Assembly (NCBI GenBank): GCA_965223665.1
Contig: OZ245011.1
Span: 1,856,001-1,920,000 of the forward strand
Direction of reading: 5' to 3'
Length of the DNA: 64,000 nucleotides
From: Nitrospinaceae bacterium
Lineage (GTDB): Bacteria; Nitrospinota; Nitrospinia; Nitrospinales; Nitrospinaceae
Shown: positions 582-44,970 of the stretch, in pieces
How the letters are laid out: each line of letters starts with the position of its first letter
Position numbering within the stretch: position 1 is the stretch's first letter
The notes under the pieces: generated by a model
Databases searched by the model: none
Seen by the model: only the letters and a program-made list of their open reading frames with translations
Told to the model about the DNA's origin: nothing
Program-made: the position numbers and the translations under genes

Positions 582-1745
582 TCAGGAAGAAGATTCCAAT
601 ACAAGAGGAATTTCAATATGTTTACCTTCACGCCACAATTTCACTTTCACAGTGTCGCCAATCTGGTAGCGATTAATTACCTTAACCAGGTCATCCATCT
701 TTCCTATCTTTTCATCATTGATGGCAAGGATGATATCGCCTCCTACAGCAAAACTTAAATTGCCAATGATTAAATTCGTGTGGCCTCCTTTAATACCACT
801 TTTACGTGCCGGGCTTCCCGGAAAGGTTTCCACAACCAAAACACCGGTTTCCAGACTGATATTGAGAATCTTTCCCAATTCGGGGTTCAGGTTTAAACCC
901 GAAATGCCTATCCAGGGTTTCGCGTACTTCCCTGTGGTGATCAGCTGTATGGCTACCGCCTTGGCACGATTGACCGGGATGGAAAATCCAATTCCCTGAT
1001 ACCCGCCGGACAAACTGAAAATAGCGGTGTTGATTCCGATCACTTCACCGCTGGAGTTGAGTAACGGTCCCCCTGAGTTTCCGGGGTTGATGGCCGCATC
1101 GGTTTGGATGAGATCGTACAACACGCCGCCGTCATTACTTTGGATTTGTCGATTCAGCGCACTCACGATACCCACCGTCATGGTGTGGGACAGTCCGAAT
1201 GGGTTTCCAATCGCAATAGCTTTTTGTCCTACTTTAATCTTGTCCGAATTCCCCAGAACCGCAACACGGGTTACATATTTCTCCGGAATTTTTATTACCG
1301 CCAAATCAGAGGAGGGATCTCGGCCAATTAAAACCGCATCCACTTTTTTCTGGTTTCCCAGCGTAACAGTGATAATCTTTGCGTTTTCTACCACATGGTT
1401 ATTCGTCAGAATATAACCCTTTTTATCAATAATGAATCCCGTGCCCTGCCCCTGTTTCGGAATAATGTTCCTCCAGTAGTTCATGGTCAAGGTGGTAGCA
1501 GCAATATTCACCACCGCTTCATGCACCTGTTCGAATACATCCGTAGTGATTTTTTCATCGGGCGAAATAACGAGGGGACGGTCCAATTTTTCAGGCCGAT
1601 TGAAATCCAGTTCCTGAGCCGACGGCGAATCCACCACTGCTAAAGAAATTTTTTCCCATTGGCCCCACAGGGTCAGCAACAGGGCAAACAGCATTAGAAT
1701 CCAGAAGTGTGATTTTGAATTTTTAAATGATGAAAATAAGTTCAT
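582..1745 (-). CDS. htrA: HtrA/DegP-family serine protease with one PDZ domain
   Basis: TNNHVV, DLAV, QTDAAINPGNSGGPL catalytic triad motifs; N-terminal hydrophobic anchor; C-terminal PDZ. Confidence 0.92.
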   Translation of the reverse strand: MNLFSSFKNSKSHFWILMLFALLLTLWGQWEKISLAVVDSPSAQELDFNRPEKLDRPLVISPDEKITTDVFEQVHEAVVNIAATTLTMNYWRNIIPKQGQGTGFIIDKKGYILTNNHVVENAKIITVTLGNQKKVDAVLIGRDPSSDLAVIKIPEKYVTRVAVLGNSDKIKVGQKAIAIGNPFGLSHTMTVGIVSALNRQIQSNDGGVLYDLIQTDAAINPGNSGGPLLNSSGEVIGINTAIFSLSGGYQGIGFSIPVNRAKAVAIQLITTGKYAKPWIGISGLNLNPELGKILNISLETGVLVVETFPGSPARKSGIKGGHTNLIIGNLSFAVGGDIILAINDEKIGKMDDLVKVINRYQIGDTVKVKLWREGKHIEIPLVLESSS

Positions 1746-1773
1746 TTTTTTCCTGTTTTTTTCAGCCCCTAAC

Positions 1774-1802
1774 TTGACAGAAAATCTAGTGGGTATTATT
1801 TA
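1774..1802 (+). promoter_or_regulatory. sigma70-like promoter of hsp20 pair
   Basis: TTGACA-N17-TATTTA; same -35/-10 as the promoter of the hsp20 at 3609-4055. Confidence 0.5.
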
Positions 1803-1923
1803 ATTTATAGGAAGGTAATAAAATGTGTCCGTTTGTATGTCAAGAGAAGGAATCTGTTTTGTGCAGTGGTTAACACTCATGGGCTAACAAGCCATGAAAT
1901 TTCAATAATTTTTAATTGGAGGT

Positions 1924-2436
1924 ATGACCATGAACCTTAAAGAACTGATTCCCTGGTATCGGGATAAAGATGGAAATTTGTTGAAAAACACCGATGATAA
2001 TCCTTTTTTGACTTTACAACGGGAAATGAATCAGATGTTCGACAGTTTCTCCCGATCCATTTTCGACGACTCCTCCTTTTTTAAGGGAAGAGGATCCGGG
2101 ATGGTATCCACTAAAATGGATGTTAAGGAAACTGATAAAAATATCCAGGTGACATTGGAACTACCCGGAATCGAGGAAAAGGATATTGATGTGAATGTTA
2201 CCAAAGATCTGCTGACGATTAAGGGGGAAAAACAAGCAGAAAAGGACGAAAAGAAAGAGGGCTATCATTTGATTGAAAGATCCTTCGGTTCTTTTCATCG
2301 GTCTGTCCCTTTACCACCGGGTGTAGAAACAGATCAGGTGAAAGCGAATTTTAAAAATGGAGTGCTGAAAATAACGCTTCCTAAATCTGAGGAAGCACAA
2401 AAAGAAACAAAAAAAGTCGAGATTAGTTCCGACTAG
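1924..2436 (+). CDS. Hsp20/alpha-crystallin small heat-shock protein
   Basis: ELPG, ERSFGSFHRS, ANFKNGVLKITLPK, C-terminal VEI motif. Confidence 0.95.
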   Translation: MTMNLKELIPWYRDKDGNLLKNTDDNPFLTLQREMNQMFDSFSRSIFDDSSFFKGRGSGMVSTKMDVKETDKNIQVTLELPGIEEKDIDVNVTKDLLTIKGEKQAEKDEKKEGYHLIERSFGSFHRSVPLPPGVETDQVKANFKNGVLKITLPKSEEAQKETKKVEISSD

Positions 2437-2542
2437 AAAAAAATGAGGCAATAGCAAAAGTGGGCCTGCCCTCTTATCTCTATTGCCTCAGCTTTATGCG
2501 AAAGATAATTTGGGTCTCAATGTTTTTAAAAGGGGCAATGTG

Positions 2543-3235
2543 ATGAAACCAAATGATTTTTCAAAAACAAATATTTCAGACACACCACCTGAAGCCAACG
2601 ACGCAGAGATGCATCGGATGAATGAATCCTACATGAACGATTTCGAGTCAAGGCGGCAATTTAAAATTAATCAGTGGCTGTGGGTAGCCATCGTGGTACT
2701 CTCTGTGATCATTGCAGTGCAAAGTTACCTGTTGTGGAAACCGCTGCAGCAACAATCTAAAGGGGATTCCTCGTCTTTAGGTTTAAAAATGGATGATTTG
2801 TTTAAACAAAAAGATCCGATAGGTCAATGGGACGCATTTGATGAATTTCAGAAAATGCAAAAGCGAATGGATGACTTTTTTAAAGAGTCTACTTCCCAAT
2901 GGGAAACCCACGAACCCCCAATGAAAAGTTTTTCCTTCGGCGGGCCGTTTTCTCAACAATACGATTTAAAAGAAACGGATGATCAAGTCATCGTTTCTTT
3001 AAATCTGCCAGGGTTAAATGAAACGAATATCGATGTGACCGTTCAAGAGGGTACTTTAAAAATCAGTGGAACCCTGCGGGAAGAAAAGAAGCGAAGCAAA
3101 GACAACTCCACCTTTCAAAGCAAAAGATCTTCTCATTTTGAGCGTTATCTCACCCTTCCCCAACCGGTTAAGGAAAACTCCCTGAAAGTAGACTACGAGG
3201 ACAATACCTTAACTGTTCAATTGGATAAAAAATAA
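2543..3235 (+). CDS. membrane-anchored Hsp20-family protein
   Basis: TM helix WLWVAIVVLSVIIAVQSYLLW then alpha-crystallin domain (NLPG, FERYLTLP, YEDNTLTV); start chosen at ATG 2543 after AGGGG. Confidence 0.85.
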   Translation: MKPNDFSKTNISDTPPEANDAEMHRMNESYMNDFESRRQFKINQWLWVAIVVLSVIIAVQSYLLWKPLQQQSKGDSSSLGLKMDDLFKQKDPIGQWDAFDEFQKMQKRMDDFFKESTSQWETHEPPMKSFSFGGPFSQQYDLKETDDQVIVSLNLPGLNETNIDVTVQEGTLKISGTLREEKKRSKDNSTFQSKRSSHFERYLTLPQPVKENSLKVDYEDNTLTVQLDKK

Positions 3236-3476
3236 CCTGCGAAAAGACATCTTGCCGTTTAACAGAAAAGGTTTTTAAGAAGTTGACGGCGAATCTCCAT
3301 TTGTCCTGGAGGCTCCTGTATTTTCCAGTGTCTGCGACAATAACAAACCGGAAAGAATTTAAAAAATAAAGTTGCCTCCTCCAGTTTAAGTTTTTTTAGG
3401 ACAAATACTCGGGGTAAGAAAGGCTCTTCAATTTTAAGACAAAATCAAAGTTAATGGTAAGCTCTGAATTTTCCAC

Positions 3477-3512
3477 AAAAAAAAAGCCTGCGCTCGAAGA
3501 AAACGCAGGCTT
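3477..3512 (-). terminator. intrinsic terminator of minus-strand hsp20
   Basis: AAGCCTGCG/CGCAGGCTT stem preceded by an A run on + strand. Confidence 0.75.
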
Positions 3513-3608
3513 ATTGGTTCAAAGGTTAGGTTGTTAAAGGACCTCGTAAAATTTAAATCTCCGAGCCAAACCCGTTCCCGGGGCCTGGCCCGCAGACAGT
3601 TTCATATT

Positions 3609-4055
3609 TTAGGAGGTGCCCTGGATTTCGACCTTCACGGTCTTGGGTTTCACTTCCTCACGCTTGGGCAGAACCAGAGTCAGAACTCCGCTGTCCAGCT
3701 TCGCGGAGATCTTCTCCGGGTCCACTCCATCACCTAGCACAAAGGAGCGTTCAAAACTTTGTGATGCAAATTCACGCATGTGATAGTTTTCCTCTTGCTT
3801 CTCAGTCTTTTCTTCTACATGACCTTTGAGGAACAGTTTACCGTCGCGAGTTTCCACACTGATGTCTTTTTCAGTCAATCCGGGAACCTGCGCCGTTAGT
3901 GTAAAGTTATCTTCGTTTTCTACCACATTCACTTTGACAGAACTCGTTTTCGCAGGAGCCCACTCAGGGTTCCAGCGAAACGCATTATTAAAAAATGGAT
4001 CGTCATCAAAAAAACGATCAATAAAATGATTTGGTTTATAAGTTACTACATTCAT
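3609..4055 (-). CDS. Hsp20/alpha-crystallin small heat-shock protein
   Basis: QVPG, FERSFVL, AKLDSGVLTLVLPK, VEI. Confidence 0.95.
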   Translation of the reverse strand: MNVVTYKPNHFIDRFFDDDPFFNNAFRWNPEWAPAKTSSVKVNVVENEDNFTLTAQVPGLTEKDISVETRDGKLFLKGHVEEKTEKQEENYHMREFASQSFERSFVLGDGVDPEKISAKLDSGVLTLVLPKREEVKPKTVKVEIQGTS

Positions 4056-4356: not shown

Positions 4357-4478
4357 TTGTCGAAACTAAACCGTTTTTTTTAATATAAAGAACGTTCCTT
4401 ATATAGGGCAGGATTTTAGGGTTTTTTTAATTGATAGAATTCGTTTTAAAACATTCCATTTGAGAAAGGTTGTATTGC

Positions 4479-5003
4479 ATGTGTGGTCAGGATCACTTAA
4501 CTCCCATTTATGAGTCTGGTTTAAGTAAAATTGAAAAATGGTCCGGGAGTTTGCACACTCTGCTATCTTACGATTCGGACTATTTATCGCTGAAAATCTG
4601 GCAGAATATTTTACACCTGCAAGGTCAAATGCTTCAGGAATGCATTGCCAAAGAAGCTCCTATATATCTCTTTCTTCCGCCTTCCAACTCCAGAGAAAAT
4701 GAAATTCAAATTCAAAACAGGGCTCATGTAAAAAACATTTCGATGAGCTCTGTCTTGAATTTATCGATTGTTTCCAAAAACAGTGGAAAAGAAATTTTGT
4801 CCGTAAGAGAACTCTCTCCCCACAAAGAGTTGCAGTTTGAGTTTAAGAAGGAAGGAGCCTATGAATTGATTTATTCCTTCGTAAATCAGCAAAAATTCGA
4901 GAAACAAATTATTAAAGTGGTTCCCAGGCGCGATTCCTCCCAACCCTATCCACCCAACTATAACCCGGACCTCAATCCCAACTGGGCCAAACGGATTTAT
5001 TAA
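4479..5003 (+). CDS. hypothetical protein, possible cupredoxin-like beta-sandwich without Cu ligands; paralog of 20221..20673
   Basis: Clear alignment with 20221 ORF (IWxNIL, IYLF, SM.S.LNLSI, EF.KEG.(Y/F)E.IY.F, IKV.P, PN(Y/F).P.L.P.W). Confidence 0.7.
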   Translation: MCGQDHLTPIYESGLSKIEKWSGSLHTLLSYDSDYLSLKIWQNILHLQGQMLQECIAKEAPIYLFLPPSNSRENEIQIQNRAHVKNISMSSVLNLSIVSKNSGKEILSVRELSPHKELQFEFKKEGAYELIYSFVNQQKFEKQIIKVVPRRDSSQPYPPNYNPDLNPNWAKRIY

Positions 5004-5050: not shown

Positions 5051-6052
5051 TTATTGGGGAGAGTCTATGGAATCTCGAATTTCTTCAATCCAGGGACCGG
5101 AAAGGAGTTGGTCAAAATGTTGAATGTATTTAAGGGACATTTCTTGGAGCAAATCCGAATTGTGCGCCAGGCGTTCGACTTGAACCCACAAATTCCATTC
5201 CTTTCGTAAGCTCCAATTCGGATCGTTCAATCTTGAATCCGGCAAACGGTAATGAAAAGTTGGCCGCGCAGAAGTCAGGTCGTCATTTAGCTGTTTTTCA
5301 ACTTTTTCTCTATTCAAAAACGTAAGTAACGGTAGTAAATCCAATTCTCGATTACGGGTCGAATTATCCGACAAATAATCATCTATAAATTGATTTAAAT
5401 CGGGTTGATACGCACTATTCATTATCTTAAGGCAATACGATTCCGGAAACGAATTAATATAGGGAGATATTTTTCGAGCCACATCCACATCAATGGCCTC
5501 GTGAAGCCAGTCACTTAACAGAAGAAATGCCCGCAAATGATTTAGGATCGCCTCCACCTTCCTGGAAGGAACTTCAGGATTGATATGAACCCCAAAGGCA
5601 AATATAAAAGCTTCATCGGTACCTTTAACATCCAGTTCCTTTAAGCCGTCGACTAAAGCATCCAACTCATTTAAGCGATCCAGCGGGATGGCATCGGTAA
5701 TCACTTCATACGGAACGACGGATTTGCTAATATCCCCAACAATTTCGCACAACTTTTCCACTGCTTCATATTTAAGAAACCGTTCCAATTCACTTTCGTC
5801 CAGTTGGTCTTCGGAAGATTTTTCAGGATGCACCAGTTGCGTATCGAGTTGCACTGAAAAATCACCCAACTTGCTTTTCAGAATTTTATAGTAATGTGCA
5901 TTGACGGTTTCGAGACGGCCACCAAAAATATCCTTAATTTTCTCTGCCACTTCCAACGGGTTTTCTGCAGCAAACTCGATTTCAAAACCAACGGTTCGCG
6001 TTTTGCCCTTATCGTTTTGGATAATGGGAGGCAGTAAAAAGGAATCATTCAT
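5051..6052 (-). CDS. putative amidoligase (COOH-NH2 ligase, Amidoligase_2-like)
   Basis: GFEIEF, YEVIT, FGVHINP, RNRELDLLP, RPTFHYRLPD motifs. Confidence 0.85.
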   Translation of the reverse strand: MNDSFLLPPIIQNDKGKTRTVGFEIEFAAENPLEVAEKIKDIFGGRLETVNAHYYKILKSKLGDFSVQLDTQLVHPEKSSEDQLDESELERFLKYEAVEKLCEIVGDISKSVVPYEVITDAIPLDRLNELDALVDGLKELDVKGTDEAFIFAFGVHINPEVPSRKVEAILNHLRAFLLLSDWLHEAIDVDVARKISPYINSFPESYCLKIMNSAYQPDLNQFIDDYLSDNSTRNRELDLLPLLTFLNREKVEKQLNDDLTSARPTFHYRLPDSRLNDPNWSLRKEWNLWVQVERLAHNSDLLQEMSLKYIQHFDQLLSGPWIEEIRDSIDSPQ

Positions 6053-6158: not shown

Positions 6159-6458
6159 TCACAGTATTTTACTTTTCACCCAATCCTTAATTCCTTCAAA
6201 AGTCGCGTTCAGGTCTTCACCCAAACCATCCAGCTTGGCTTTCAATCCTTCCAGGGCACTGTCTTCCGCATTTATAAGTAGACTTTGCAGTTCCTTAATG
6301 ACGGCAATTTGTTTTCTAAGGTTAACGATATGCTCCTCATATTGTTCTTTAATTTCATCCGAGGCATTTTCCAGGTCTTTTTTTAGAACCTCAATATTAA
6401 ATGTATATTGTTCCAGCTTTTGATCCAGCTGGTCCAGATACTCTTGTTTTTTAAACAT
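6159..6458 (-). CDS. small coiled-coil protein
   Basis: Heptad-rich helical sequence; GGGG RBS before ATG 6458. Confidence 0.7.
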   Translation of the reverse strand: MFKKQEYLDQLDQKLEQYTFNIEVLKKDLENASDEIKEQYEEHIVNLRKQIAVIKELQSLLINAEDSALEGLKAKLDGLGEDLNATFEGIKDWVKSKIL

Positions 6459-6639
6459 GGTTTCCCCTTGCAAAAAAGTGAACTCCTTATCCTTTTATCA
6501 CTAAACAGATTTAAATTGAAAGATTTTTAATTCAGGTATTTAAGAGAGACCCTTTCCAATGAAAAGTAATTCCTATAAAAGCCGAGACTATCAACCCAAA
6601 GGGCATCCTGAATTTTTTTTAATTTTTTTTCTACTGACC

Positions 6640-6667
6640 TTGACAATTTTCCAGTCCATTTTATAAA
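6640..6667 (+). promoter_or_regulatory. sigma70-like promoter of small secreted protein copy 2
   Basis: TTGACA-N16-TATAAA. Confidence 0.6.
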
Positions 6668-6675
6668 TAAATTAA

Positions 6676-6788
6676 CAAGCCTGATTGGCCGGAATATTTG
6701 CAACCTGACTTTAAGGGTTGAACTAAAACCATGATGATTTCTTAATTAATGAATTATTTCGGGCTTTAATCTTTTTTGGTTCCGGCTG
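6676..6788 (+). ncRNA. candidate structured cis-regulatory leader RNA (pseudoknot), copy 2
   Basis: 6677-6684/6759-6766, 6686-6694/6780-6788, 6701-6706/6715-6720, 6733-6739/6752-6758 pairings equivalent to copy 1. Confidence 0.6.
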
Positions 6789-6821
6789 TAACTTTTCATT
6801 TTTTTTCTTTAGGAGGTTACC

Positions 6822-7064
6822 ATGAAAAAACTCTTATTTTTATTGATTGCAACTACCCTACTCATCGGATTTTCAGGAGTCAGCGCTTTTGCCAAAGACC
6901 CCGCTTCCCCCGAAGTAGACCGTCACGCCGTATGGACCCATGCCACTTCATCTGGCAAATGGAGTCAAGGCCCCATGATCTCAAAAGACCGCAAAAGCAA
7001 TCCTTTTGACTTTATTCGTGAAACAAAATCTTACGAATATAATAAAGGCAGTAAACAATCTTAA
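6822..7064 (+). CDS. small secreted protein (80 aa), paralog of 189..428
   Basis: AGGAGG RBS, signal peptide ending AFA, shared conserved motifs. Confidence 0.85.
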   Translation: MKKLLFLLIATTLLIGFSGVSAFAKDPASPEVDRHAVWTHATSSGKWSQGPMISKDRKSNPFDFIRETKSYEYNKGSKQS

Positions 7065-7077
7065 TTAATAACCTATG

Positions 7078-7108
7078 AGCGGCTCCTCTCAGGAAGAGGA
7101 GTCGCTTT
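7078..7108 (+). terminator. terminator-like hairpin (weak U tail), homologous to 448-481
   Basis: AGCGGCTCCTCT/AGAGGAGTCGCT stem then TTT. Confidence 0.55.
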
Positions 7109-7171
7109 AAAATTTAACGTGCCCTAAAAATAATCCGGTTTTAAACTTTCTTTTAACAAAAAGGAGGAGCC

Positions 7172-7357
7172 ATGACCGTTGCGGAAATAACTCGAAATGA
7201 AGAAACGCGCGCCGTGGAAGAATCACAGGCGGATAACCTGAAACAAAAAATTGAAGGTAGCTTTAAATCCGAGAAAGACGAATTTCACCAACCGAAGTGG
7301 CAAAAGCGCTCTCTCATTCAGGACGCGTTTTACCGATACGGCGGGTATTATTCCTGA
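7172..7357 (+). CDS. small hypothetical protein (61 aa)
   Basis: Strong AAGGAGG RBS; ends FYRYGGYYS. Confidence 0.65.
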   Translation: MTVAEITRNEETRAVEESQADNLKQKIEGSFKSEKDEFHQPKWQKRSLIQDAFYRYGGYYS

Positions 7358-7371
7358 ATCGTTAATACGCT

Positions 7372-10300
7372 TCAACTTTCAAGGGAACTCAGGTTTTTTG
7401 CCAGATATTCGTCAATGGTTTTTAAAAAATGGGGAATAGAAAATGGCTTCGTTATATAAGCTTCAAATCCACACGACAAAGCTTTTTTCTTATCCGTTTC
7501 CATTGCATTGGCACTCACAGCAATCACAGGGATATTTTTTGTTTCTTCATAAGATTGAAGATATTTGAATGCTGTAATCCCGTCTATTTCCGGGAGGTTT
7601 ATATCCATAAGAATTAATTCAGGCTGGTGTTTTTTTGCTAATTCAATACCTATATCTGCTTTGCCGGCTGAAACAAAGCGAATTTCATCACGATTAGATA
7701 GTATTTCTTTTACAAGAAGATGATTAGCTGGATTATCTTCAATATAAAGCAGAGTAAACTTTTTATCAGCCGGCAAAATATTTTTTCTCACCTTGGGTTG
7801 CCCCATGGATACTGAATTTTTGTTTACAGGATTTTTTCCCATTGGAAAATTAACCATAAAACAACTTCCCTTGCCAGGCGTACTGTCTACCCCAATGGTT
7901 CCATTCATCATTTCAACTAAAGATTTTGTCAAAGAGAGACCTATCCCCGTTCCTTCAATCCCCGTGGTTTCGAAACCTATCCTATTAAAGGGCTCAAATA
8001 TTTCCTTCTGTTTTTCTTTTGAAATCCCTGGTCCTGTGTCACTAACTTTTATTTGAACCTGATCGCTTTCCATGAGGGAATAGTCAATTGAAATCGTCCC
8101 TCCTTCTTTGTTGTATTTAACTGCGTTGGAAAGTAAATTCAGCAAAACTTGTTTAAATCGAAGCCGGTCCACATTCACGAAAATTTCTTCGTTTGGGTCC
8201 ATCAGGTTAAAAATATCAATATCCCTCTTTTTCGCCATAGGGCGAAGCAGTGTTAAGGATTCCGAAACTATTTCTTTTAGATTTACATTTTCAATAGAGA
8301 AAGTTGTTTTGCCCGATTCTATGGATGCCAAATCAAGAATTTCATTGATGAGCGCCAATAAATGATTTCCCGCATTTATTATTTCTTTACATCTATCCTG
8401 CTGAGCAGGAGATAAGAGCATTTTGGAATCATTTTTTAATAACTGTCCAAATCCTAAAATTGCATTTAAAGGAGTTCGTAATTCATGACTCATGCTGGAT
8501 AAAAATTTAGATTTTGCGTAATTGGCTTTTTCGGCGTCTTCTTTGGTTTTGATTAATTGCTTTTCAATTTCTTTTCGTTCTGTTATATCTCGGACAATAC
8601 CCACAAAATATATTTTTTCCCCAATGACCATTTCATTAATTGCAAGATCCATAGGGAAAGTTTTTCCAGCTTTAGACAACCCTCTGACTTCGCGTCCAAT
8701 TCCAATTATTTTTGACTTTTTATTTGAAAGGTATTGTTTTAAATAGTTATCGTGATCTGAAGCATAGGGCTCCGGCGCTAGATATGAAATATTCTTTCCA
8801 ATAACCTCAGAAGCCTCATACCCGAAAATTCTTTCTGCACTTGAATTGAACGACTGAATGATTCCCTTGTCATTGATTGTGATCAGTCCGTCTGCAATAT
8901 TTTCGATTATCGAATTGAGCCTCACCTGATTTTCTGCTAATTGAACATTTGTGGAATTAAGTTCTTTAGTCCTTTCATTGACCAGTTGTTCAAGGTGATT
9001 TTGATACTCTTCCAATTCCTGCAAGTATTTTTTTTGCTCGGTAATATCCCGAATAATACAAACATAGAGCAAATGTTCCTCAACATGCATGGGCTTTATC
9101 CGCAATTCAACAGGGAACATGTTCTGATCTTTTTTTATTCCCATGCCTTCCAATTCTTTGGAGGGTTGGGACTCAGCCCATTGAATTAATTTTTTAATGA
9201 GAATATTTTCAGAGATTTTTTCCGAAATCGTAAAAAGACGGTTCAAATTCTTCCCAATAATTTCATTCGAACTGTAACCAAACATTTTTTCTGCAGCCGG
9301 ATTAAAGGATTCCACTACACCTTTTGGGTCGAAAATAGCTACTCCTTCTGTTAAATTATCTATGGTTGCAGAAATCAGTGCTTCATCTCTTAATAATTTT
9401 TCTTCCAGGGCTTCCAAATTGTGTTCTGAAATATCCAGACCAATTCTTTCTTCCTTATAATTCACCCGAAGAGGAAAAACTTTATTTATTCCCCATAAAA
9501 ATACATAGGCAGTACCAAAAGACCAAACGAAACAAATACCCACACCTTCCATTTGTACCCAAAGCTGTTCTAAAACACTGTTCCGGGACCCCCAGGAGGA
9601 GGGATCTCCAAATAATGCAACGGCTAAAGTTCCCCAAACCCCGTTAACACAATGAATGGGAATAGCGTTGACCACGTCATCGATTTTTTGTTTCTCTAAA
9701 AATTGGGTGGCAAAAAAACTTAAAAGACCCGCCACCAGCCCAATAATGATTGAGGATTGATCATCTACAATGTTACAGCAAGCAGTTATAGCCACTAAGC
9801 CCGACAAACTTCCGTTGATTAGAGTTTCCGGGCTGGGGCGTTTCAGTATTATCCAGGATATAAGGAGAGAAGATAAACTTCCGGAAATGCCGGCTAAAAG
9901 AGTATTGAGAATAATGTTGGGTACTTCTTGATTAAAATGTAAGGTACTTCCCCCGTTAAAACCAAACCATCCAATCCATAATAACAATCCGCCCAACACG
10001 GCCAGGGGAATATTATTCGGCTGAAAAAATTTCTTTTCACGATTATACCTTCCAGTTCGAGGCCCTAAAATAATTAATGCGGCCAGGGCGACCCATCCCC
10101 CAACACTGTGAACTACAGTCGACCCGGCAAAATCTATAAAACCTCTTTCCGCTAGCCAACCCACCGGCTGCCCGGATTCCAATCCCGCCCACGCCCAATG
10201 CCCAAATAGGGGATAAATAATTCCTGAAACTATCATCCCGATAATTAGATAGCCCAAAAACCGGACGCGTTCGGCGATTGCTCCTGAAATAATAGTGACC

Positions 10301-10626
10301 GCCGTCCCGCAAAACATCAACTCAAACAGAAAAAATGTTTTTTGCCAGGGATCATATATTTCGTTTAGGAAAAATCCAGTGGTGCCTAATAAACCGTTAT
10401 GGGAAACACCAAACAGGAGAGCAAAACCCCATATCCAAAAAATACTGGAAGAAATGGTAAGATCGGCAAAATTCTTTAGAGCAACATTGATTGCGTTTTT
10501 TCTTCTAACCAATCCCGCTTCAAGACAAGTAAAGCCCGCTTGCATAATTATTAGAAAACCAGTGCAAACAATAAGCCAAATTAAATCCTGATTGGAATAG
10601 ATTAAATTATTCAAAACTATGTCCAA
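7372..10626 (-). CDS. ammonium transporter (Amt)-PAS-PAS-hybrid histidine kinase-receiver fusion
   Basis: Amt motifs DFAGSTVVH, WIGWFGFNGGS, IDDVV..IPIH; two PAS domains; SHELRTPLNAILGF H-box; N/G boxes; REC (IEDN, LMDINLP, YITKP). Confidence 0.93.
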   Translation of the reverse strand: MDIVLNNLIYSNQDLIWLIVCTGFLIIMQAGFTCLEAGLVRRKNAINVALKNFADLTISSSIFWIWGFALLFGVSHNGLLGTTGFFLNEIYDPWQKTFFLFELMFCGTAVTIISGAIAERVRFLGYLIIGMIVSGIIYPLFGHWAWAGLESGQPVGWLAERGFIDFAGSTVVHSVGGWVALAALIILGPRTGRYNREKKFFQPNNIPLAVLGGLLLWIGWFGFNGGSTLHFNQEVPNIILNTLLAGISGSLSSLLISWIILKRPSPETLINGSLSGLVAITACCNIVDDQSSIIIGLVAGLLSFFATQFLEKQKIDDVVNAIPIHCVNGVWGTLAVALFGDPSSWGSRNSVLEQLWVQMEGVGICFVWSFGTAYVFLWGINKVFPLRVNYKEERIGLDISEHNLEALEEKLLRDEALISATIDNLTEGVAIFDPKGVVESFNPAAEKMFGYSSNEIIGKNLNRLFTISEKISENILIKKLIQWAESQPSKELEGMGIKKDQNMFPVELRIKPMHVEEHLLYVCIIRDITEQKKYLQELEEYQNHLEQLVNERTKELNSTNVQLAENQVRLNSIIENIADGLITINDKGIIQSFNSSAERIFGYEASEVIGKNISYLAPEPYASDHDNYLKQYLSNKKSKIIGIGREVRGLSKAGKTFPMDLAINEMVIGEKIYFVGIVRDITERKEIEKQLIKTKEDAEKANYAKSKFLSSMSHELRTPLNAILGFGQLLKNDSKMLLSPAQQDRCKEIINAGNHLLALINEILDLASIESGKTTFSIENVNLKEIVSESLTLLRPMAKKRDIDIFNLMDPNEEIFVNVDRLRFKQVLLNLLSNAVKYNKEGGTISIDYSLMESDQVQIKVSDTGPGISKEKQKEIFEPFNRIGFETTGIEGTGIGLSLTKSLVEMMNGTIGVDSTPGKGSCFMVNFPMGKNPVNKNSVSMGQPKVRKNILPADKKFTLLYIEDNPANHLLVKEILSNRDEIRFVSAGKADIGIELAKKHQPELILMDINLPEIDGITAFKYLQSYEETKNIPVIAVSANAMETDKKKALSCGFEAYITKPFSIPHFLKTIDEYLAKNLSSLES

Positions 10627-10791
10627 ATATTTTCGAAGTCAAACTTTTTAAACAGAAAAATATTCCATGGCCCCTACCCAGAGATGAGCTAAACCATTAA
10701 ATTATTTAAATTTACCTGAATTTTCATTGTAATTTATTATTAGACAAAGATGAATATTTTTATCAAACTTTGTCAAAATAATGGACCAGAC

Positions 10792-10809
10792 GTTCCAAAA
10801 TATTGGAAC
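10792..10809. promoter_or_regulatory. perfect inverted repeat in divergent promoter region
   Basis: GTTCCAA-AATA-TTGGAAC between the Amt-HK and FIST genes. Confidence 0.4.
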
Positions 10810-11004
10810 ACCGTAAAAGTTCCTGAAGCGGAAAATTGTTTGCGTTGGGTCAATTAAGGGGTAGCAGCCTATTATATATTTACATTCGGTTTCACTATAT
10901 TATAAAATAGATAGAACCCCGAAATGCCTTAGGGAAAGGCTGAATATTTCCACACCATCGTGTGTTTTGACTAAAGCATTACGAGAAAATTATAGGGAGA
11001 GGCT

Positions 11005-12147
11005 ATGAAGATTGAGCAAAGAGTTTGGACTGAAGAAAAAGGATGGAATTCTCCATCTTCCTCTTTATTTACCGAAAAAAGCCAACTGGTTATTTTATTT
11101 TGTGGCAGCAATATCGTAAAAAATGACAAGGTCTTAAACGAAGTTAAGGAAAGTTACCCAAACTCAACCATCGTGGGTTGTACTTCTGCAGGAGAAATTT
11201 TAGAAACTCAGGTTTATGATGACTCTCTGGTAGTCACTGCCGTGGTTTTTGAAAACACTCCCATTAGTTCCCATTTAGAAAAAATTGAGAGTCCCGAAAA
11301 TAGTTATCAAACCGGAAAAGATTTAATTCAAAAAATTCCTTCGGAAAACTTAAAACACGTCATAATTTTTTCAGAGGGAATCCATTTGAATGGGAGCGAA
11401 CTGGTCCGGGGAATCCGAGAGAATATCCCTGCCAACGTGGGTTTGTCCGGAGGACTTGCGGGGGACGGGATTTCTTTTAAAGAAACCTTTGTATTTTACA
11501 ATGGCGAGCCTATAAAAAACGGAGTGGTGGCAGTCGCTTTTTATGGAGACCGGATCCAGATTGGACATGGTTCCATGGGAGGATTCAGCCCCTTTGGACC
11601 CGAGCGATTGGTCACCAAATCCAAAGGAAATATTTTGTATGAACTGGATGACCAACCGGCCGTTGAATTGTATAAAAAATATCTGGGAGAAGAAAAATCC
11701 AAAGACCTGGCAACCAATCAATTCTTCTTTCCTTTAAGTTACCGAAACAAAGATATGGAAGAAAGTGTGGTTCGAACGATTTTAACCATTGACGAAGAAA
11801 ACAACTGCATGGTGTTTGCCGGGGATTTAAAAGAGGGTGGATATGCCAGGTTAATGAAGACCAATCCTTTTAAATTGGTGGAAGGATCAGATAAAGCGGC
11901 GCAATTCTGTGTGGACAGTTTAGATTCCGATACTCCAGACTTAGCCATCTTGATCAGTTGCGTGGGAAGAAAGATTATTTTAAAACAGAGAGTCGAAGAA
12001 GAAGTGGAAGCCGTTCGGTTCCATTTTAAAAATGGAATTTCTATGACGGGTTTTTATTCTTATGGCGAGATCGCCCAGTTTAATTTTATTAAGTCCTGTC
12101 AACTGCACAATCAAACTATGACAATTACCGTGTTCAAGGAAAATTAA
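11005..12147 (+). CDS. FIST-domain (FIST_N + FIST_C; NosP-like) signal transduction protein
   Basis: GCTSAGEI, GGLAGD, SCVGR, GFYSYGEI, HNQTMT motifs. Confidence 0.92.
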   Translation: MKIEQRVWTEEKGWNSPSSSLFTEKSQLVILFCGSNIVKNDKVLNEVKESYPNSTIVGCTSAGEILETQVYDDSLVVTAVVFENTPISSHLEKIESPENSYQTGKDLIQKIPSENLKHVIIFSEGIHLNGSELVRGIRENIPANVGLSGGLAGDGISFKETFVFYNGEPIKNGVVAVAFYGDRIQIGHGSMGGFSPFGPERLVTKSKGNILYELDDQPAVELYKKYLGEEKSKDLATNQFFFPLSYRNKDMEESVVRTILTIDEENNCMVFAGDLKEGGYARLMKTNPFKLVEGSDKAAQFCVDSLDSDTPDLAILISCVGRKIILKQRVEEEVEAVRFHFKNGISMTGFYSYGEIAQFNFIKSCQLHNQTMTITVFKEN

Positions 12148-12149
12148 AA

Positions 12150-13526
12150 TTGCATCGATTACTCGCTAAACAGGTCGACCGCTATTTAATGGATGGGAAT
12201 TTGTCCAAAGAAAACCTGGATAAATTTTTAGAAGCAGTGAGCGAAGCTTACGAGCAATCCGATGAAGACTACAAAACTCTGGAAGCGGCAATGGATCTTG
12301 CCTCCGAGGAGTTAACCGAAAGATACAATGCCCTTCACAAAGAAATTGATGCTAAGGAAAAAGCCGTACAGGCAGACCGCGCAAAAACTGATTTTCTCTC
12401 CAGAATGAGTCATGAATTACGAACTCCCATGAATGCCATTCTTGGATTTGGCCAACTGTTGGCAAGGGACTCGAAGGATCCACTGACTCCGCAGCAAAAT
12501 AAAAATATTCGAGAAATTTTAAAAGCCGGTAAGCACCTTCTTGAACTGATCAATGACGTTCTGGATTTATCCACCATTGAATCAGGAAAACTTTCCCTCT
12601 CTATTGAAAACGTAAACCTGTTCGAAGTGGTGAAAGAGTCTTTAGAACTGGTGATGCCTTCCGCTGAACAAAGAAATATCAGAATCATTAATGAAATCCA
12701 CTCCAATAACAATTCTTATGTAAAGGTCGACCGCACTCGATTTAAACAGGTCCTGCTGAATTTATTGACGAATGCGATTAAATATAATAAAGAAAATGGT
12801 CAGGTCATTATAAAGGTAGCTGATTCTGAACCTGAGCAATTTCTTGTCACCATTGAAGATACGGGAATAGGTATCCCTGAAAATCAGCATGAATATATTT
12901 TTGAGCCTTTCAATCGAATGGGGGCGGAAGAATCTTCTGTTGAGGGCATTGGCATTGGCCTGAGTATTTCCCACCGACTCTTACACCTTATGAAGGGGAA
13001 AATTGACTTTGAAAGTGAAGTCGGGAAGGGAACCACATTTTCTCTTCAATTAATCAAAGGAGAAGCTCCGGAATTACCTTGTCCGGAAACTACCGAACAA
13101 ACTTCTGAGAAAGATTGTGTATCCTCAGAAAACAATAAACTGGTCCTTTATATAGAAGACAACCCTGCCAATCTAAAACTGGTCGAAGAAATTTTTAAAG
13201 TACTGGATGGAGTTTCGCTTCTTACCGCTCCGCAGGCAGCCATGGGGATTGAGCTTGCCAAGAGCCATTTACCGGATTTAATTTTAATGGACATCAATCT
13301 TCCGGAAATGGATGGGCACACCGCCTTAAAGTTATTAAAATCTTATGAAGAAACGAAAGATATTCCCACCATCGCCATCAGCGCCAATGCCATGAAGGGA
13401 GATGTTGAAAAGGGACTGAAATCAGGATTCCTCAGTTACATCACCAAACCCATTCAAGTGGACACCTTCATCAGTACGCTTAAAAAATATTTGGACGAGT
13501 CGATCTACTCCAACCCCATCTCCTGA
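12150..13526 (+). CDS. cytoplasmic hybrid histidine kinase-receiver
   Basis: SHELRTPMNAILGF, NAIKYN, DTGIG, GIGIGL, REC domain; starts 2 nt after FIST stop. Confidence 0.92.
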   Translation: MHRLLAKQVDRYLMDGNLSKENLDKFLEAVSEAYEQSDEDYKTLEAAMDLASEELTERYNALHKEIDAKEKAVQADRAKTDFLSRMSHELRTPMNAILGFGQLLARDSKDPLTPQQNKNIREILKAGKHLLELINDVLDLSTIESGKLSLSIENVNLFEVVKESLELVMPSAEQRNIRIINEIHSNNNSYVKVDRTRFKQVLLNLLTNAIKYNKENGQVIIKVADSEPEQFLVTIEDTGIGIPENQHEYIFEPFNRMGAEESSVEGIGIGLSISHRLLHLMKGKIDFESEVGKGTTFSLQLIKGEAPELPCPETTEQTSEKDCVSSENNKLVLYIEDNPANLKLVEEIFKVLDGVSLLTAPQAAMGIELAKSHLPDLILMDINLPEMDGHTALKLLKSYEETKDIPTIAISANAMKGDVEKGLKSGFLSYITKPIQVDTFISTLKKYLDESIYSNPIS

Positions 13527-13842: not shown

Positions 13843-14496
13843 CTATTTGATTAAATTATTTTGAAATGCGTAACGCGTGATTTCTGAATTGCTGCTCAAA
13901 TTTAATTTCTTCAAAATATTAGTGCGGTGTGAGTTGGCGGTATTGATACTGATGGAAAGTTCACGAGCAATTTCTTTAATTTTTTTACCTGATGCAATCA
14001 TAAAAAAGATTTGATGTTCACGATTAGACAAAGTTTCATGGAGTAAACCATCTGAACTTTTTCCTAGATTCATTGCCAACTTTTCGCTAAGCGCTTGAGT
14101 AATGTATTTTTTCCCATCCGCCACCTTTCGAATGGCTTCTAATAACTGCTCTGGAGGGCAGGTTTTTGACAGATAAGCTGAAGCTCCTGAATTTATTAAT
14201 CGCAGTCCATATTGTTCCTCCTCAAAAATACTAAGTATAATAACGGGAAGTTCCGGATACTGAGTTTTTAGCTGAACCAAAACCTCGATCCCCGTTTTTC
14301 CCGGCATTTCAATATCCATTAACACTACATCGATTTCCAAGGTACGCAATTTATCTAAAACCTCAGAACCGTCTTCTGCTTCACCTGCGATTATAATACT
14401 CGAATCCTGAGAAAGAATATGGCGCAAACCATGCCGTACGACTGCATGATCATCTACAATTAACACCTTAATGAATTTTTCGAAATATGGGCTCAT
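13843..14496 (-). CDS. NarL/UvrY-family response regulator (REC + LuxR HTH)
   Basis: IVDDHAVVR, MDIEMP, YLSK, LSNRE...IARELSIS. Confidence 0.93.
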   Translation of the reverse strand: MSPYFEKFIKVLIVDDHAVVRHGLRHILSQDSSIIIAGEAEDGSEVLDKLRTLEIDVVLMDIEMPGKTGIEVLVQLKTQYPELPVIILSIFEEEQYGLRLINSGASAYLSKTCPPEQLLEAIRKVADGKKYITQALSEKLAMNLGKSSDGLLHETLSNREHQIFFMIASGKKIKEIARELSISINTANSHRTNILKKLNLSSNSEITRYAFQNNLIK

Positions 14497-19377: not shown

Positions 19378-20016
19378 ATGAAACAAAAGACAATTCAATT
19401 AATCATTGCAGAAGGTCACCCCATTTATTTAATTGGATTGATAAATATTTTTAACGAAGTGGCGGATATTCATATCCAGGCAAAAGTTAACAATGAAAAA
19501 GATTTATTCAAGAAACTTAGCGAAAGAAATTTTGATTTAGTTTTACTTGATTCTAATTTGCCGGGCAATTCTTGTTTAGATATTTTAAAAAAATTAAAAA
19601 CTAAATATCCTCGGTTACCCATTTTTGTTTTAAGTAACTCTCCAGAAGAACGTTTTGGGCGAAATATAATGAATGCCAATGCATCAGGTTTTTTGACCAA
19701 AGAAGCGCCAGGTAAACATATTTTAGAAGGCGTTAGAAAAATTGCCGATGGAGGAGTTTTTGTTAGTCCCAGCATACTCGAAAGATTTGCTTTTGATTTT
19801 TCACCTATTAATCAGGTTTTACACGGAACTCTCTCCCGGCGAGAATATCAGGTGTTTTGCTTGATTGCGCGGGGATGTGCTCTGGTGGAAATAGGTGAAA
19901 TATTAAACTTGAGTGTCAAAACCATCAGCACATATCGCACACGAATATTAGAAAAAATGCAAATGAAAAAAAACGCAGAACTCATACATTATGCATTGGA
20001 CCAGAATTTAATTTAA
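19378..20016 (+). CDS. NarL-family response regulator with atypical acidic pocket
   Basis: REC (AEGH instead of DDH; LLDS, LTK) plus LuxR HTH (LSRRE, LSVKTISTYR). Confidence 0.9.
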   Translation: MKQKTIQLIIAEGHPIYLIGLINIFNEVADIHIQAKVNNEKDLFKKLSERNFDLVLLDSNLPGNSCLDILKKLKTKYPRLPIFVLSNSPEERFGRNIMNANASGFLTKEAPGKHILEGVRKIADGGVFVSPSILERFAFDFSPINQVLHGTLSRREYQVFCLIARGCALVEIGEILNLSVKTISTYRTRILEKMQMKKNAELIHYALDQNLI

Positions 20017-20220: not shown

Positions 20221-20673
20221 ATGGATGAAAAGTCTTTAACCGCTTCCATAGATTTCAACCCCATTATAATTTCCACGAGAATTTGGACGAATATTCTCCA
20301 AATAGAAGGGAAATTGATTCCAAATGTCAGAGAAAAAGAAACAACAATTTATTTATTTCAAACAAGAAATGATCCGCTGGAAGTTGAGGTTCCTGTTCAC
20401 CAATGGGTCCATTTTAGAAATAATTCAATGAATTCCATTTTGAACTTGTCAATACTTTATAAAAAGACCCGAGAAGAAGTATTAACTTTGAAAGAACTCC
20501 CAGCCCAAAAAACAATAGGCCTTGAGTTTAGGAAAGAAGGATTTTTTGAAGTTATTTATTTATTTGCCAACTCTCAAAAGTTTTTGAGACAGTTTATTAA
20601 AGTTATACCTGGTGACCAGGAATCTAAACGACCCTCTCCTAATTTTCACCCTAAATTAAAACCTTTTTGGTAG
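20221..20673 (+). CDS. hypothetical protein, paralog of 4479..5003
   Basis: GAGGAG RBS; alignment to 4479 ORF. Confidence 0.75.
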   Translation: MDEKSLTASIDFNPIIISTRIWTNILQIEGKLIPNVREKETTIYLFQTRNDPLEVEVPVHQWVHFRNNSMNSILNLSILYKKTREEVLTLKELPAQKTIGLEFRKEGFFEVIYLFANSQKFLRQFIKVIPGDQESKRPSPNFHPKLKPFW

Positions 20674-20759: not shown

Positions 20760-21521
20760 TTAAAAAAACAGGTCCAGTGTATTCAGGAAGTTTGCCCTTA
20801 ATTGGTGTAATCGTTCTTTTTTAATTTCCAATGTGTCGCGATTGAACCAGGGGTCGGATAAATAGAGTTTGCGGTTCATTTCTATTTGTATCCAGGGCAG
20901 GGGTCGGTACCCGTAAACCCGGGTGATGAAACCACCCGCAAACGGTTTGTTGATGGTAATATCGCTTTCGTTTAATTTAAAAGCGGTTTGAAAGCAGGTT
21001 GCCAGGTGACGGACCGTTTCTTCCGGACAACTTTGATGGTTGTTGCTTCCCAAACAGATTAAAGGGCGCTCGGAGCCTGAGTCCGGTGCAATTTCAGGGC
21101 CTACGGGTTCCATGGTATGACAATCCAGACAAAGCTGGATTCTTTCCGAACTCACAGAAAGATTCATAATATTGTCATGATAGGGTTGGTAGTAATTCTT
21201 TATCAGCGTTTCCGTCAACGCTCCATCCGGGTGTGAATCTTCATGGTAAATCGGTTTTCCATGACAGGTCATGGATTTCACAATACCGTCTGGATTTTTG
21301 GGGGGACGGTCATCGACATCTCGATTTAAATCAACAAACGCCCGGGCAATCGATGTATCCAAAAACGCATCAACGTGATCTTCGATCCCGTAAATTTCTC
21401 TCGTAAAGGCATCTCCATCTTCAAACAAATCAAGTGGAGTGATGCAGGTTCTCCCCTCAAGTTCTTTGGGAGTTTCGCTGCCTCCGTGTGGAATGGAGAT
21501 AAGAACGGGATGTTTAGACAT
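20760..21521 (-). CDS. N-formylglutamate amidohydrolase family protein
   Basis: ISIPHGG, D, RAFVDLNR, YYQPYH, DCHTM, PFAGG, IQIEMNR. Confidence 0.9.
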   Translation of the reverse strand: MSKHPVLISIPHGGSETPKELEGRTCITPLDLFEDGDAFTREIYGIEDHVDAFLDTSIARAFVDLNRDVDDRPPKNPDGIVKSMTCHGKPIYHEDSHPDGALTETLIKNYYQPYHDNIMNLSVSSERIQLCLDCHTMEPVGPEIAPDSGSERPLICLGSNNHQSCPEETVRHLATCFQTAFKLNESDITINKPFAGGFITRVYGYRPLPWIQIEMNRKLYLSDPWFNRDTLEIKKERLHQLRANFLNTLDLFF

Positions 21522-21524
21522 AAA

Positions 21525-25360: not shown

Positions 25361-25363
25361 TGA

Positions 25364-26089
25364 TTAAGCCCACTCGAGTGCCTCCAGAGATTTTTTTAAT
25401 TCTGATATATGTTTATATTTTTTAAGAATCAGACTTTTCTTCAGGCCGCAGCAAATATCTTTTACGATTTTGGGTTGTTGAGCATAGTTTTTTTTGCCAC
25501 CTAAAACTTCATAAAAAATATGGATCAACCCGATCAGATCTTCTTTAAAAAATATGGGCTTTGCTGACCCATAGTGGAACAGGTCCAAAAGTTTGAGTTC
25601 CACCGTCAGGCCAAATTTATTAACAATGATATTATCGGTATGCAAATCTCCGTGGTATTCCTTTTTTAAGTGGATTTCTTCAATGCCCTGGGTGAGAGCG
25701 TACAGCAAATGAAGCGCTTTATAAGGTTCCAGCTTGTTTCCCCTAAAGTTTTTCAGAAATTCCGATAAAAGGATACCTTCAACATACTCTGATATTAAAA
25801 CAGAAATTGGGGTTTTTTTAAAAATAATTTCTTCCTGATTCAGATATTGGATGAGTAAAGAACAATTGCGCAGGTGGTAGAGTTTTTTAGCATAGATTTT
25901 GGAGGCTCGCTCCCGGATGTTTCTTTGTGGAAAAAATAACTTGGCAGCTCTTTCTAAACCTGTTTTGGTCTCCCTTACTTTATAGACCTCACCTTCCCAA
26001 CCGGCACCCAGTTTTGAAATCACTTTATATTTCCCGGCAATGGACCTTCCCGGTTGGAGGTTGAATTCATGAATTTGGGGAAATTTCAT
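25364..26089 (-). CDS. Ser/Thr protein kinase-like protein
   Basis: LGAGWEGEVY, AAK, HGDLHTDN, LLDL. Confidence 0.85.
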   Translation of the reverse strand: MKFPQIHEFNLQPGRSIAGKYKVISKLGAGWEGEVYKVRETKTGLERAAKLFFPQRNIRERASKIYAKKLYHLRNCSLLIQYLNQEEIIFKKTPISVLISEYVEGILLSEFLKNFRGNKLEPYKALHLLYALTQGIEEIHLKKEYHGDLHTDNIIVNKFGLTVELKLLDLFHYGSAKPIFFKEDLIGLIHIFYEVLGGKKNYAQQPKIVKDICCGLKKSLILKKYKHISELKKSLEALEWA

Positions 26090-34256: not shown

Positions 34257-34274
34257 GCAATTGCGTTCCCCTCC

Positions 34275-34997: not shown

Positions 34998-35018
34998 GTG
35001 AACTCTCTCCGAAAAAAA

Positions 35019-35987: not shown

Positions 35988-36067
35988 TTTAAAATAGGAC
36001 TCCTATCTTAATATTCCTTTGAGACCTCGATCGAAACCCAAAACTTTTATTTTTAACGAAACAACTC

Positions 36068-37501: not shown

Positions 37502-37651
37502 ATATTTCCTAAAGCAAGGCCCCATGAAAAAGGAACCTTTGAGCCAAACGAACAATAAAGAGGTGTGCGCTCCCCTAAAAAAACTGTCCTATTATACAGG
37601 ATTCATTATTCTAAAACCTACAATATTAAATTAGAAAAACTCTAAAAAATT

Positions 37652-43497: not shown

Positions 43498-43652
43498 TTT
43501 TGTTCCCTTCCCCGAACATAGTGTTTCCTTCCTTTTTCGACAAAAAGTTCTAAACCATTAAAAATCGCTAACATAGACCTGCCTTTTTCTTTACGATCCA
43601 GTTTGTACCGAAATCGGTTTTCCAATTACCCCCAATTTGCCCCCATCAAGTT

Positions 43653-43681
43653 TTGACAAAACCGGCTAAAGGGTATAAATT
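43653..43681 (+). promoter_or_regulatory. sigma70-like promoter
   Basis: TTGACA followed by TATAAATT at 15-17 nt. Confidence 0.5.
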
Positions 43682-44957: not shown

Positions 44958-44970
44958 TTTGTTTTATCAT

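Follow-up and report, generated by a model that had tools for sequence, protein, structure and literature searches.

A predicted hybrid sensor kinase that joins an ammonium-receptor Amt domain to a FixL-type heme PAS domain in a Nitrospinaceae genome

The window analysed here is a 64,000-nucleotide stretch of the genome of a Nitrospinaceae bacterium (GenBank assembly GCA_965223665.1, contig OZ245011.1, positions 1,856,001 to 1,920,000 of the forward strand). On its minus strand, at 7372..10626, lies a gene whose product carries an Amt domain, two PAS domains, a histidine kinase core and a receiver; the second PAS domain (PAS2) is predicted to be of the FixL heme type, and we refer to the protein as the Amt-heme kinase. 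A preliminary description of this DNA, made from the sequence alone, had located the gene and proposed that the one protein integrates ammonium with a gas signal. The gene and its parts, all on the minus strand, are listed below; positions are those of the window, and residues are numbered throughout on the 1084-amino acid version that begins at the first in-frame TTG (10626).

7372..10626, minus strand: whole gene, Amt-PAS-PAS(heme-type)-HisKA-HATPase-REC hybrid sensor kinase (single open reading frame, Pfam)
9403..10587, minus strand: Amt domain, predicted receptor (AmR) type, residues 14-408 (PF00909, TIGR00836, PDB matches)
10249..10542, minus strand: N1/N2 stretch with Q29, E36, K51, N52, D55, (L56), T111, S114 and Y126 (alignment to Sd-Amt1/Ks-Amt5)
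9031..9375, minus strand: PAS1, residues 418-532 (Pfam PAS_9/PAS_4)
8899..9042, minus strand: long PAS1-PAS2 helix, a coiled-coil-type signalling helix of 48 residues, 529-576 (AlphaFold2 secondary structure)
8557..8931, minus strand: PAS2, predicted FixL-type heme PAS, residues 566-690 (BjFixL alignment; PF00989, PF24820)
8752-8754 and 8692-8694, minus strand: PAS2 key codons, H625 and R645, respectively
7822..8556, minus strand: kinase core, made up of DHp 691-772 (phospho-His H714) and the catalytic ATP-binding part 773-935 (Pfam, N/G1/G2 boxes)
7396..7758, minus strand: receiver, residues 957-1077 (Pfam; D1008, S1038, K1060)

The reading frame is uninterrupted over 1084 codons counted from the first TTG, which confirms the gene as real and intact. 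All six domains exceed the Pfam cut-offs: Ammonium_transp at 16-405 (E 7.8e-118), PAS at ~418-532 and 570-681, HisKA at 704-772, HATPase_c at 820-929 and Response_reg at 960-1071. The order given in the preliminary description (Amt, PAS1, coiled coil, PAS2, kinase, receiver) agrees with both Pfam and the helix at 529-576 of the AlphaFold2 model. An ortholog in a genome of the same genus (G018, hereafter the congener) is 82% identical across residues 2-1084. The first in-frame TTG (10626) reads TGG in the congener, and a TTG four codons on (10614) is common to both; because the latter is the sole start codon shared with the congener, it is more likely the true start, giving a protein of probably 1080 residues. 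The database gene call for the congener (P0003, 1057 amino acids) is probably too short: its start lies 27 residues into the alignment, inside the first transmembrane helix.

The Amt domain scores 411.5 bits against TIGR00836, over the cut-off of 343.3. Its best PDB matches are Sd-Amt1 (8qj3, E 6.2e-114) and Ks-Amt5 (6eu6, E 1.1e-98 over 391 residues), while transporters match less well (Af-Amt1, 1.3e-63; E. coli AmtB, ~1e-42); Foldseek on the AlphaFold2 model ranks the matches in the same order as the sequence search. Aligned to 6eu6 and compared with the residue list of PMC5764959, the twin histidines H173/H325 correspond to Ks-Amt5 H171/H326, the Phe gate F105/F223 to F103/F223 and the Trp/Ser site W146/S227 to W144/S227. 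These elements and the Asp of the DFAG motif (D165), all named in the preliminary description as retained, could thus be mapped on the Ks-Amt5 alignment.

The receptor class is defined by two intramembrane NH4+ sites, N1 and N2 (PMC5764959, PMC11152129). Their ligands in Sd-Amt1 are E29, N45, D48, T104 and S107, and the residues K44 and Y119 act as a switch (PMC11152129). At these positions the Amt domain has E36, N52, D55, T111 and S114 as ligands and K51 and Y126 as switch residues, and its N271 corresponds to the exit-narrowing N269 of Sd-Amt1. The ligand and switch residues are invariant or at least 90% kept in an alignment of 17 Amt-fused relatives. The same genome encodes three Amt genes, and only one, the fused copy, carries the N1/N2 set; at the Q/E/N/D/T positions the stand-alone paralogues read L/Y/H/P/A (AmtA) and H/E/I/D/A (AmtC). 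The transducer module, PAS-PAS-HisKA-HATPase-REC, is fused C-terminal to residue 408 of the Amt domain. These features support assignment of the domain to the ammonium-receptor class of Sd-Amt1 and Ks-Amt5, rather than merely to Amt proteins at large, and a response to NH4+ is predicted.

PAS2 was searched by itself against the PDB as residues 566-702. It matches the heme domain of BjFixL at E 1.6e-31 (1dp6) and 2.5e-32 (8js5) over 124-125 residues without a gap, with 57 of 124 positions identical as counted on the alignment; the next matches are RmFixL from Sinorhizobium (1.5e-28) and E. coli DosP (~1e-13). The preliminary description had placed PAS2 at about 8560-8920 and called it a close match to FixL: its location (8557-8931) and its likeness (ungapped, E ~1e-31) hold, whereas the FixL string quoted there is only approximate. 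The heme-ligand His of FixL falls on H625 and its distal Arg on R645, inside IIGIGR, so that both residues said earlier to be kept are in place, and the TFPM.L.I stretch is kept as well. In BjFixL numbering we take H625 to be the proximal H200 and R645 the distal R220, with Y628 and Y632 presumably equivalent to Y203 and Y207, I640/I641 to I215/I216, and M659, L661 and I663 to M234, L236 and I238. All 17 Amt-fused relatives in the alignment share H625, and at least 90% of them share R645, I641 and D626. The NCBIfam model for rhizobial FixL, NF041777 (sens_FixL_Rhizob), is matched over residues 562-931 (E 1.8e-76). PAS2 ends at ~681-690 and HisKA starts at 704, so PAS2 adjoins the DHp domain, as in FixL. 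These matches support PAS2 as a FixL-type heme PAS, for which binding of heme is predicted.

PAS1 has distant PDB matches in the range 1e-10 to 1e-8 (DosP, the best at 1.5e-10, YtvA and FixL); it has neither a heme His nor a LOV Cys, its key positions reading ELKQP-SKEL, and is probably a transmitter or dimerisation PAS. A full-length AlphaFold2 model (17-row alignment, mean predicted local distance difference test score [pLDDT] 67.7) was consulted for the secondary structure and the order of the domains; pLDDT is ~80-89 in the PAS and kinase domains and below 50 in the first 115 residues. In this model the strands of PAS1 lie within 428-527 and those of PAS2 within 580-680, a single helix (529-576) runs from PAS1 to PAS2, and another single helix (682-732) extends from PAS2 across the H-box. 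The kinase motifs are intact (H714 in SHELRTP, the N834 region, DTGPGI at 863-868 as G1 and GTGIGL at 892-897 as G2), as are the receiver residues D1008, S1038 and K1060, and both the kinase and the receiver look active, as predicted from these residues. A Pfam scan of the protein found no histidine phosphotransfer (HPt) domain; HPt is matched twice elsewhere in the genome, once in a stand-alone frame of 121 codons (G000:C1:3329905-3330135).

Constraint was estimated from the ratio of nonsynonymous to synonymous substitution rates (dN/dS) between the Amt-heme kinase and its congener ortholog, for which dS is ~1.1 and the overall dN/dS 0.095. Values for the segments, from the most to the least constrained, are as follows.

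PAS1-PAS2 helix: dN/dS 0.039, identity 90%
PAS2: dN/dS 0.053, identity 88%
Receiver: dN/dS 0.053
PAS1: dN/dS 0.083
Amt domain: dN/dS 0.087
Kinase core: dN/dS 0.114
Pre-receiver linker: dN/dS 0.305

PAS2 is under strong purifying selection and is among the most constrained segments of the protein.

As far as sequence goes, the idea of one protein that integrates ammonium with a gas signal is supported, and we think it reasonably probable that the Amt-heme kinase is a hybrid kinase on which periplasmic NH4+ and cytoplasmic O2 act as gates in series and whose output is a phosphorelay. The Amt fold places its C-terminus in the cytoplasm, and therefore the protein could read periplasmic NH4+ at its membrane domain and a diffusible gas at its heme in the cytoplasm. 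The periplasmic Trp/Ser site would recruit NH4+, which would then be diverted to the intramembrane N1/N2 sites (E36, N52, D55, T111, S114), the occupancy of which would shift K51, Y126 and the cytoplasmic end of the Amt domain. From there the signal may travel through two short helices (390-418) to the cofactor-less PAS1, along the helix at 529-576 to PAS2, and along the helix at 682-732 to H714. PAS2 would bind heme b via His625 and read O2 via Arg645; since its C-terminal helix is continuous with the DHp helix bearing His714, the state of the heme would have the last word on autophosphorylation. FixL is on in its deoxy form and off in its oxy form, and by this analogy deoxy PAS2 would be on and oxy PAS2 off. 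The kinase of Ks-Amt5 responds to NH4+ (PMC5764959), and the simplest logic we can infer for the Amt-heme kinase is activity when ammonium is present and O2 is low. The phosphoryl group would pass to the protein's own receiver Asp1008 and, since the Amt-heme kinase has no HPt domain, on to a separate HPt protein and then to a response regulator.

A survey of domain architecture, named as a check in the preliminary description, finds that the heme-type PAS recurs among Amt-kinases. Relatives were collected by a protein search at E ≤ 1e-20, which gave at least 7350 matches, and the best 119 of these were analysed. The Amt domain is fused to a kinase in all 119, and Amt-kinase fusions are thus common. 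A heme-type PAS (at least 95 bits against PAS2, with both His and Arg present) occurs in 28 of the 119, in several architectures; an end-to-end alignment of the PAS-DHp-catalytic core gives 29, with two weak cases gained and P0013 missed. Another seven have the His without the Arg, and a Gimesia-type group (10 Amt-fused rows) has Gln at both positions. In seven heme-type relatives of differing architecture the heme-type PAS always adjoins the DHp domain. Source names of family members include metagenome-assembled genomes of Nitrospirota. The architectures are:

Amt-hemePAS-HK, 834 amino acids (P0028), the simplest
Amt-PAS-hemePAS-HK, with or without REC
Amt-PAS-GAF-hemePAS-HK-REC
Long forms with two receivers and HPt

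Within the phylum of the window (120 species genomes, 20 loci examined), an Amt domain together with a heme-type PAS was found in G000, G018, G016, G037 and G065, and the identical architecture, at 82% identity, only in the congener G018. Outside the phylum no Amt reading frame with a heme-type PAS was found in the loci sampled (102 loci with 44 Amt reading frames, the phylum's own included), a sample that was drawn with general patterns (DFAG..VVH, MSHELRTP) as the best 80 of 621 relatives, consists mostly of plain Amt proteins and unrelated kinases, and is no census. A database search with PAS2 only gave at least 2215 matches at E ≤ 1e-15, with an Amt domain in two of the 120 listed (the query and its congener); because these matches are ranked by the summed score of tandem repeats, this search shows only that FixL-like PAS kinases are very common. 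In the same genome, FixL-type PAS domains with both His and Arg are present in at least three further frames, o3198 (829 codons, with two tandem copies), o5052 (574) and o3204 (463), and o1093 (1728 codons) has His and Lys. Both this genome and its phylum show an expansion of the heme-PAS module.

In a FastTree phylogeny of the PAS2-DHp-catalytic core (137 rows), the query and its congener are recovered together with support of 100, within a seven-row group shared with non-Amt FixL-like kinases of the same order and apart from the other Amt-heme clades; a quick IQ-TREE tree (60 His-bearing rows, two long-branch rows dropped) places them next to the same neighbours. An approximately unbiased test rejects the 39 Amt-fused rows as one group (log-likelihood difference 289, p 3.5e-61), in a setting where the group was named after the first tree was seen, the search was short and the tree had no outgroup. 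Read most simply, these sequence trees suggest more than one event in which an Amt receptor and a FixL-like core were joined or exchanged. The Amt-heme kinase is not a one-off; it is a member of a recurrent sub-family of which we found no description in the literature. A literature search for fusions of an Amt domain with a heme PAS found none described, with the reservation that the domain listing in Fig. 7B of PMC11152129 may include PAS-kinase fusions. The Sd-Amt1 paper describes fused Amts as diverse and calls for further work (PMC11152129).

Each half of the protein has close counterparts among characterised systems. Ks-Amt5 of Ca. Kuenenia stuttgartiensis is likewise an Amt domain fused C-terminally to a HisKA-type kinase (PMC5764959), with the selectivity filter, Phe gate and twin histidines kept and the N1/N2 ligands Q, E, N, D, T and T/S conserved. 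Unlike the Amt-heme kinase, it is 679 amino acids long and its kinase follows straight after the Amt domain, the authors stressing that PAS, HAMP and STAC domains are absent (PMC5764959). Ks-Amt5 has neither a heme domain nor a receiver, and the Amt-heme kinase adds two PAS domains, the long helix and the receiver; it also has L56, L35 and L39 where Ks-Amt5 has T51, Y30 and F34. Sd-Amt1 of Shewanella denitrificans (8qj3/8qj4/8qpf) is the closest solved Amt, with about half of the residues identical, and shares the N1/N2 ligands, the K44/Y119 switch, the exit-narrowing Asn and the arrangement of a trimeric sensor on a dimeric transducer, whereas its output is a HAMP-GGDEF diguanylate cyclase rather than a kinase and it has no second cofactor sensor domain (PMC11152129).

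FixL of B. japonicum and S. meliloti (1dp6, 8js5, 1d06) has its heme PAS right before the DHp-catalytic core and another PAS ahead of it, as in the Amt-heme kinase. It has no Amt domain, however, and the Amt-heme kinase adds a receiver and changes the equivalents of R206 and H214; BjFixL is a soluble protein, and RmFixL is attached by a simple membrane anchor. E. coli DosP (EcDOS; 1v9y, 9cdr) shares the heme-PAS fold and ranks second among the solved families for PAS2, but its output is a cyclic di-GMP phosphodiesterase, its likeness to PAS2 is far below that of FixL, and PAS1 is without a DosP-type heme His.

Divergent to the gene for the Amt-heme kinase lies a neighbouring operon.

11005..13526, plus strand: FIST_N/FIST_C protein, then a sensor-less hybrid kinase-receiver (Pfam)

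This order resembles that of NosP-NahK pairs (NF041558, NF041832), and the kinase-receiver part of the Amt-heme kinase also matches NF041832 (1e-46). The neighbour pair nevertheless scores far under the NCBIfam cut-offs, the FIST protein with 75.3 against a NosP cut-off of 450 and the kinase with 155.3 against a NahK/ErcS cut-off of 400. It is family resemblance, and nothing further, that points to NO sensing by the FIST protein. The core of the neighbour kinase is 52% identical to that of the Amt-heme kinase, and the FIST protein and kinase pair is kept beside the ortholog in the congener, which tentatively suggests that the neighbour kinase is a sister input feeding the same phosphorelay.

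Several observations weigh against gating in series by ammonium and O2. On the Amt side, the published AmR signature, QX6EX15NX2D[F/T]X54-60TX2[S/T] (PMC11152129), is unmatched in its strict form at one position, where the domain has L56 for F/T; a relaxed expression matches residues 29-114. The position is occupied by F49, a non-ligand, in Sd-Amt1 and by T51 in Ks-Amt5, and among the 119 relatives and the query together the residue is F in 75 of 120, L in 21 (the query included) and I in 6. Only one of the three Ks-Amt5 pore-blocking residues (F27, Y30, F34) is kept, as F32 next to L35 and L39, and the domain may still transport. Linkers 391-425 and 551-577, which are needed to carry the Amt signal, have pLDDT values below 50. 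Histidine kinases dimerise. The Amt trimer meets the kinase dimer with a symmetry mismatch. Such a mismatch is also discussed for Sd-Amt1, where two of the three transducers pair (PMC11152129). One might then suppose that the Amt domain provides no signal input and acts as a transporter or a trimeric anchor, the kinase being a membrane-tethered FixL that reads heme only. The intact pore motifs and the absence of two blocking residues fit this, as does the presence of working transporters among cluster-2 Amts (PMC11152129), and the grouping of the kinase core with non-Amt FixL-like kinases of the same order indicates that the core works without an Amt domain. The genome already has two stand-alone Amt genes, however, and only the fused copy among its Amts keeps the N1/N2 set; the dN/dS of the Amt domain is 0.087, the fusion to a kinase is kept in every one of the 119 relatives analysed, and both Ks-Amt5 and Sd-Amt1 are experimentally ammonium-responsive (PMC5764959, PMC11152129). 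We therefore consider a signal-less Amt domain quite unlikely.

On the heme side, two FixL heme-propionate contacts are replaced, by Q631 and K639, at positions that we take to be R206 and H214 of BjFixL; the congener carries R and T there, so these positions drift. The FixL equivalog score is 257.8 bits, far under the cut-off of 850, and PAS2 with its kinase core is therefore a FixL-like module and not a FixL orthologue. Nor could a FixJ/FixK partner be assigned among the regulators of the window: the REC-GerE regulators at 13843-14496 and 19378-20016 match the FixJ model with 84.6 and 50.4 bits (cut-off 255), and other families fit them better. PAS2 could be FixL-like by descent and no longer bind heme, which would leave an ordinary Amt-PAS-PAS kinase that senses ammonium only. 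The two changed contacts are in line with such a loss, and the Gimesia-type relatives did lose both the His and the Arg; yet PAS2 retains the His, the Arg and the hydrophobic pocket residues, the 17-sequence alignment shows no exception to the His, and the segment ranks among the most constrained, making a heme-less PAS2 very improbable. It is also conceivable, if unlikely, that the architecture is as proposed and the heme reports NO, CO or redox state (Fe(II)/Fe(III)), coupling ammonium to nitrogen-oxide or redox status. Heme PAS domains of this fold serve different ligands, DosP being the second-best solved family; the same two propionate-contact positions are unlike FixL, and the neighbouring operon pairs a FIST protein having a weak match to NosP, a nitric-oxide sensor, with a NahK/ErcS-like kinase. 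Against this, the distal Arg and the Ile-Ile pair, which in FixL give O2-specific switching, are conserved in PAS2, and its likeness to FixL (1e-31) is far above that to DosP (1e-13). By analogy with FixL we favour O2 over NO as the probable ligand of PAS2, and with it a kinase that would respond to both ammonium and O2.

A wider arrangement around this two-input kinase can be imagined, which we regard as doubtful. In such a multi-kinase node the Amt-heme kinase would compute a logic of NH4+ and O2 along one helical spine, the FIST protein and the paralogous kinase would add a third signal, possibly NO, and both HPt-less kinases would feed one stand-alone HPt. Were this the case, nitrogen or respiratory physiology would be decided from NH4+, O2 and nitrogen oxide jointly, and the repeated, independent joining of Amt domains to FixL-like cores would mean that the pairing was favoured by selection several times.

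Studies of Amt ammonium receptors have covered two proteins, both of them with one input, and FixL is the textbook O2-sensing kinase. The Amt-heme kinase would be a natural chimera in which a single polypeptide carries the two sensors in a fixed order, starting with the membrane receptor and ending with the heme PAS immediately ahead of the kinase, and it makes testable how two signals combine along one signalling helix. It may also help to explain in molecular terms how ammonium availability is tied to oxygen in bacteria that live at oxic-anoxic interfaces of the nitrogen cycle. Should it prove heme-less or ammonium-blind, it would be an ordinary kinase of parts already known. While the separate parts are well known, we found no description of the combination of an ammonium receptor with a FixL-type heme PAS.

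A promoter and terminator scan of 6400-11100 gave 17 promoter-like and 5 terminator-like sites, no excess over shuffled sequences (14.0 and 4.8, respectively), and the 378-bp divergent intergenic region, inspected by eye, showed neither a sigma-54 nor an FNR/FixK box that was convincing. None of the canonical nitrogen-regulation genes adjoins the gene for the Amt-heme kinase. Downstream of it lies an Amidoligase_2 gene and, farther on, there are several gamma-glutamyl and amide-nitrogen enzymes.

Amide and gamma-glutamyl chemistry is dense at 5051-6052, 20760-26089 and 33411-37555 of the window, with Amidoligase_2, an N-formylglutamate amidohydrolase, a 735-amino acid fusion of an ATP-grasp domain (D-Ala-D-Ala-ligase-like) and an M20 peptidase, and a cluster of circularly permuted ATP-grasp, Alpha-E and transglutaminase genes. 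A gamma-glutamyltranspeptidase at 37723-39467 (minus strand) is divided over two overlapping reading frames, 38706-39467 (Pfam 2-148) and 37723-38862 (Pfam 143-512), and is likely a frameshift or a broken copy; intact paralogues lie at 21525-23156 and 27318-29054.

The block of signalling genes is flanked on either side by small reading frames without a Pfam match, 4470-5003 and 20221-20673 (both plus strand), which by eye look like paralogues with the common tail ...NLSI...LKEL...EF.KEG..E.IY.F.N.QKF..Q.IKV.P. The large reading frames at 56403-59321 (972 amino acids) and 52992-54212 (406 amino acids), both on the minus strand, have no Pfam match at E ≤ 1e-8. At 582-4055 an HtrA-type protease gene precedes three genes for HSP20 small heat-shock proteins; the product of one has 250 amino acids, with a predicted membrane segment as well as a long extension at the N-terminus. 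A CBM96 carbohydrate-binding module at the N-terminus is common to five paralogous genes at 42184-48217 and 59631-61214 (plus strand), of which four are consecutive.

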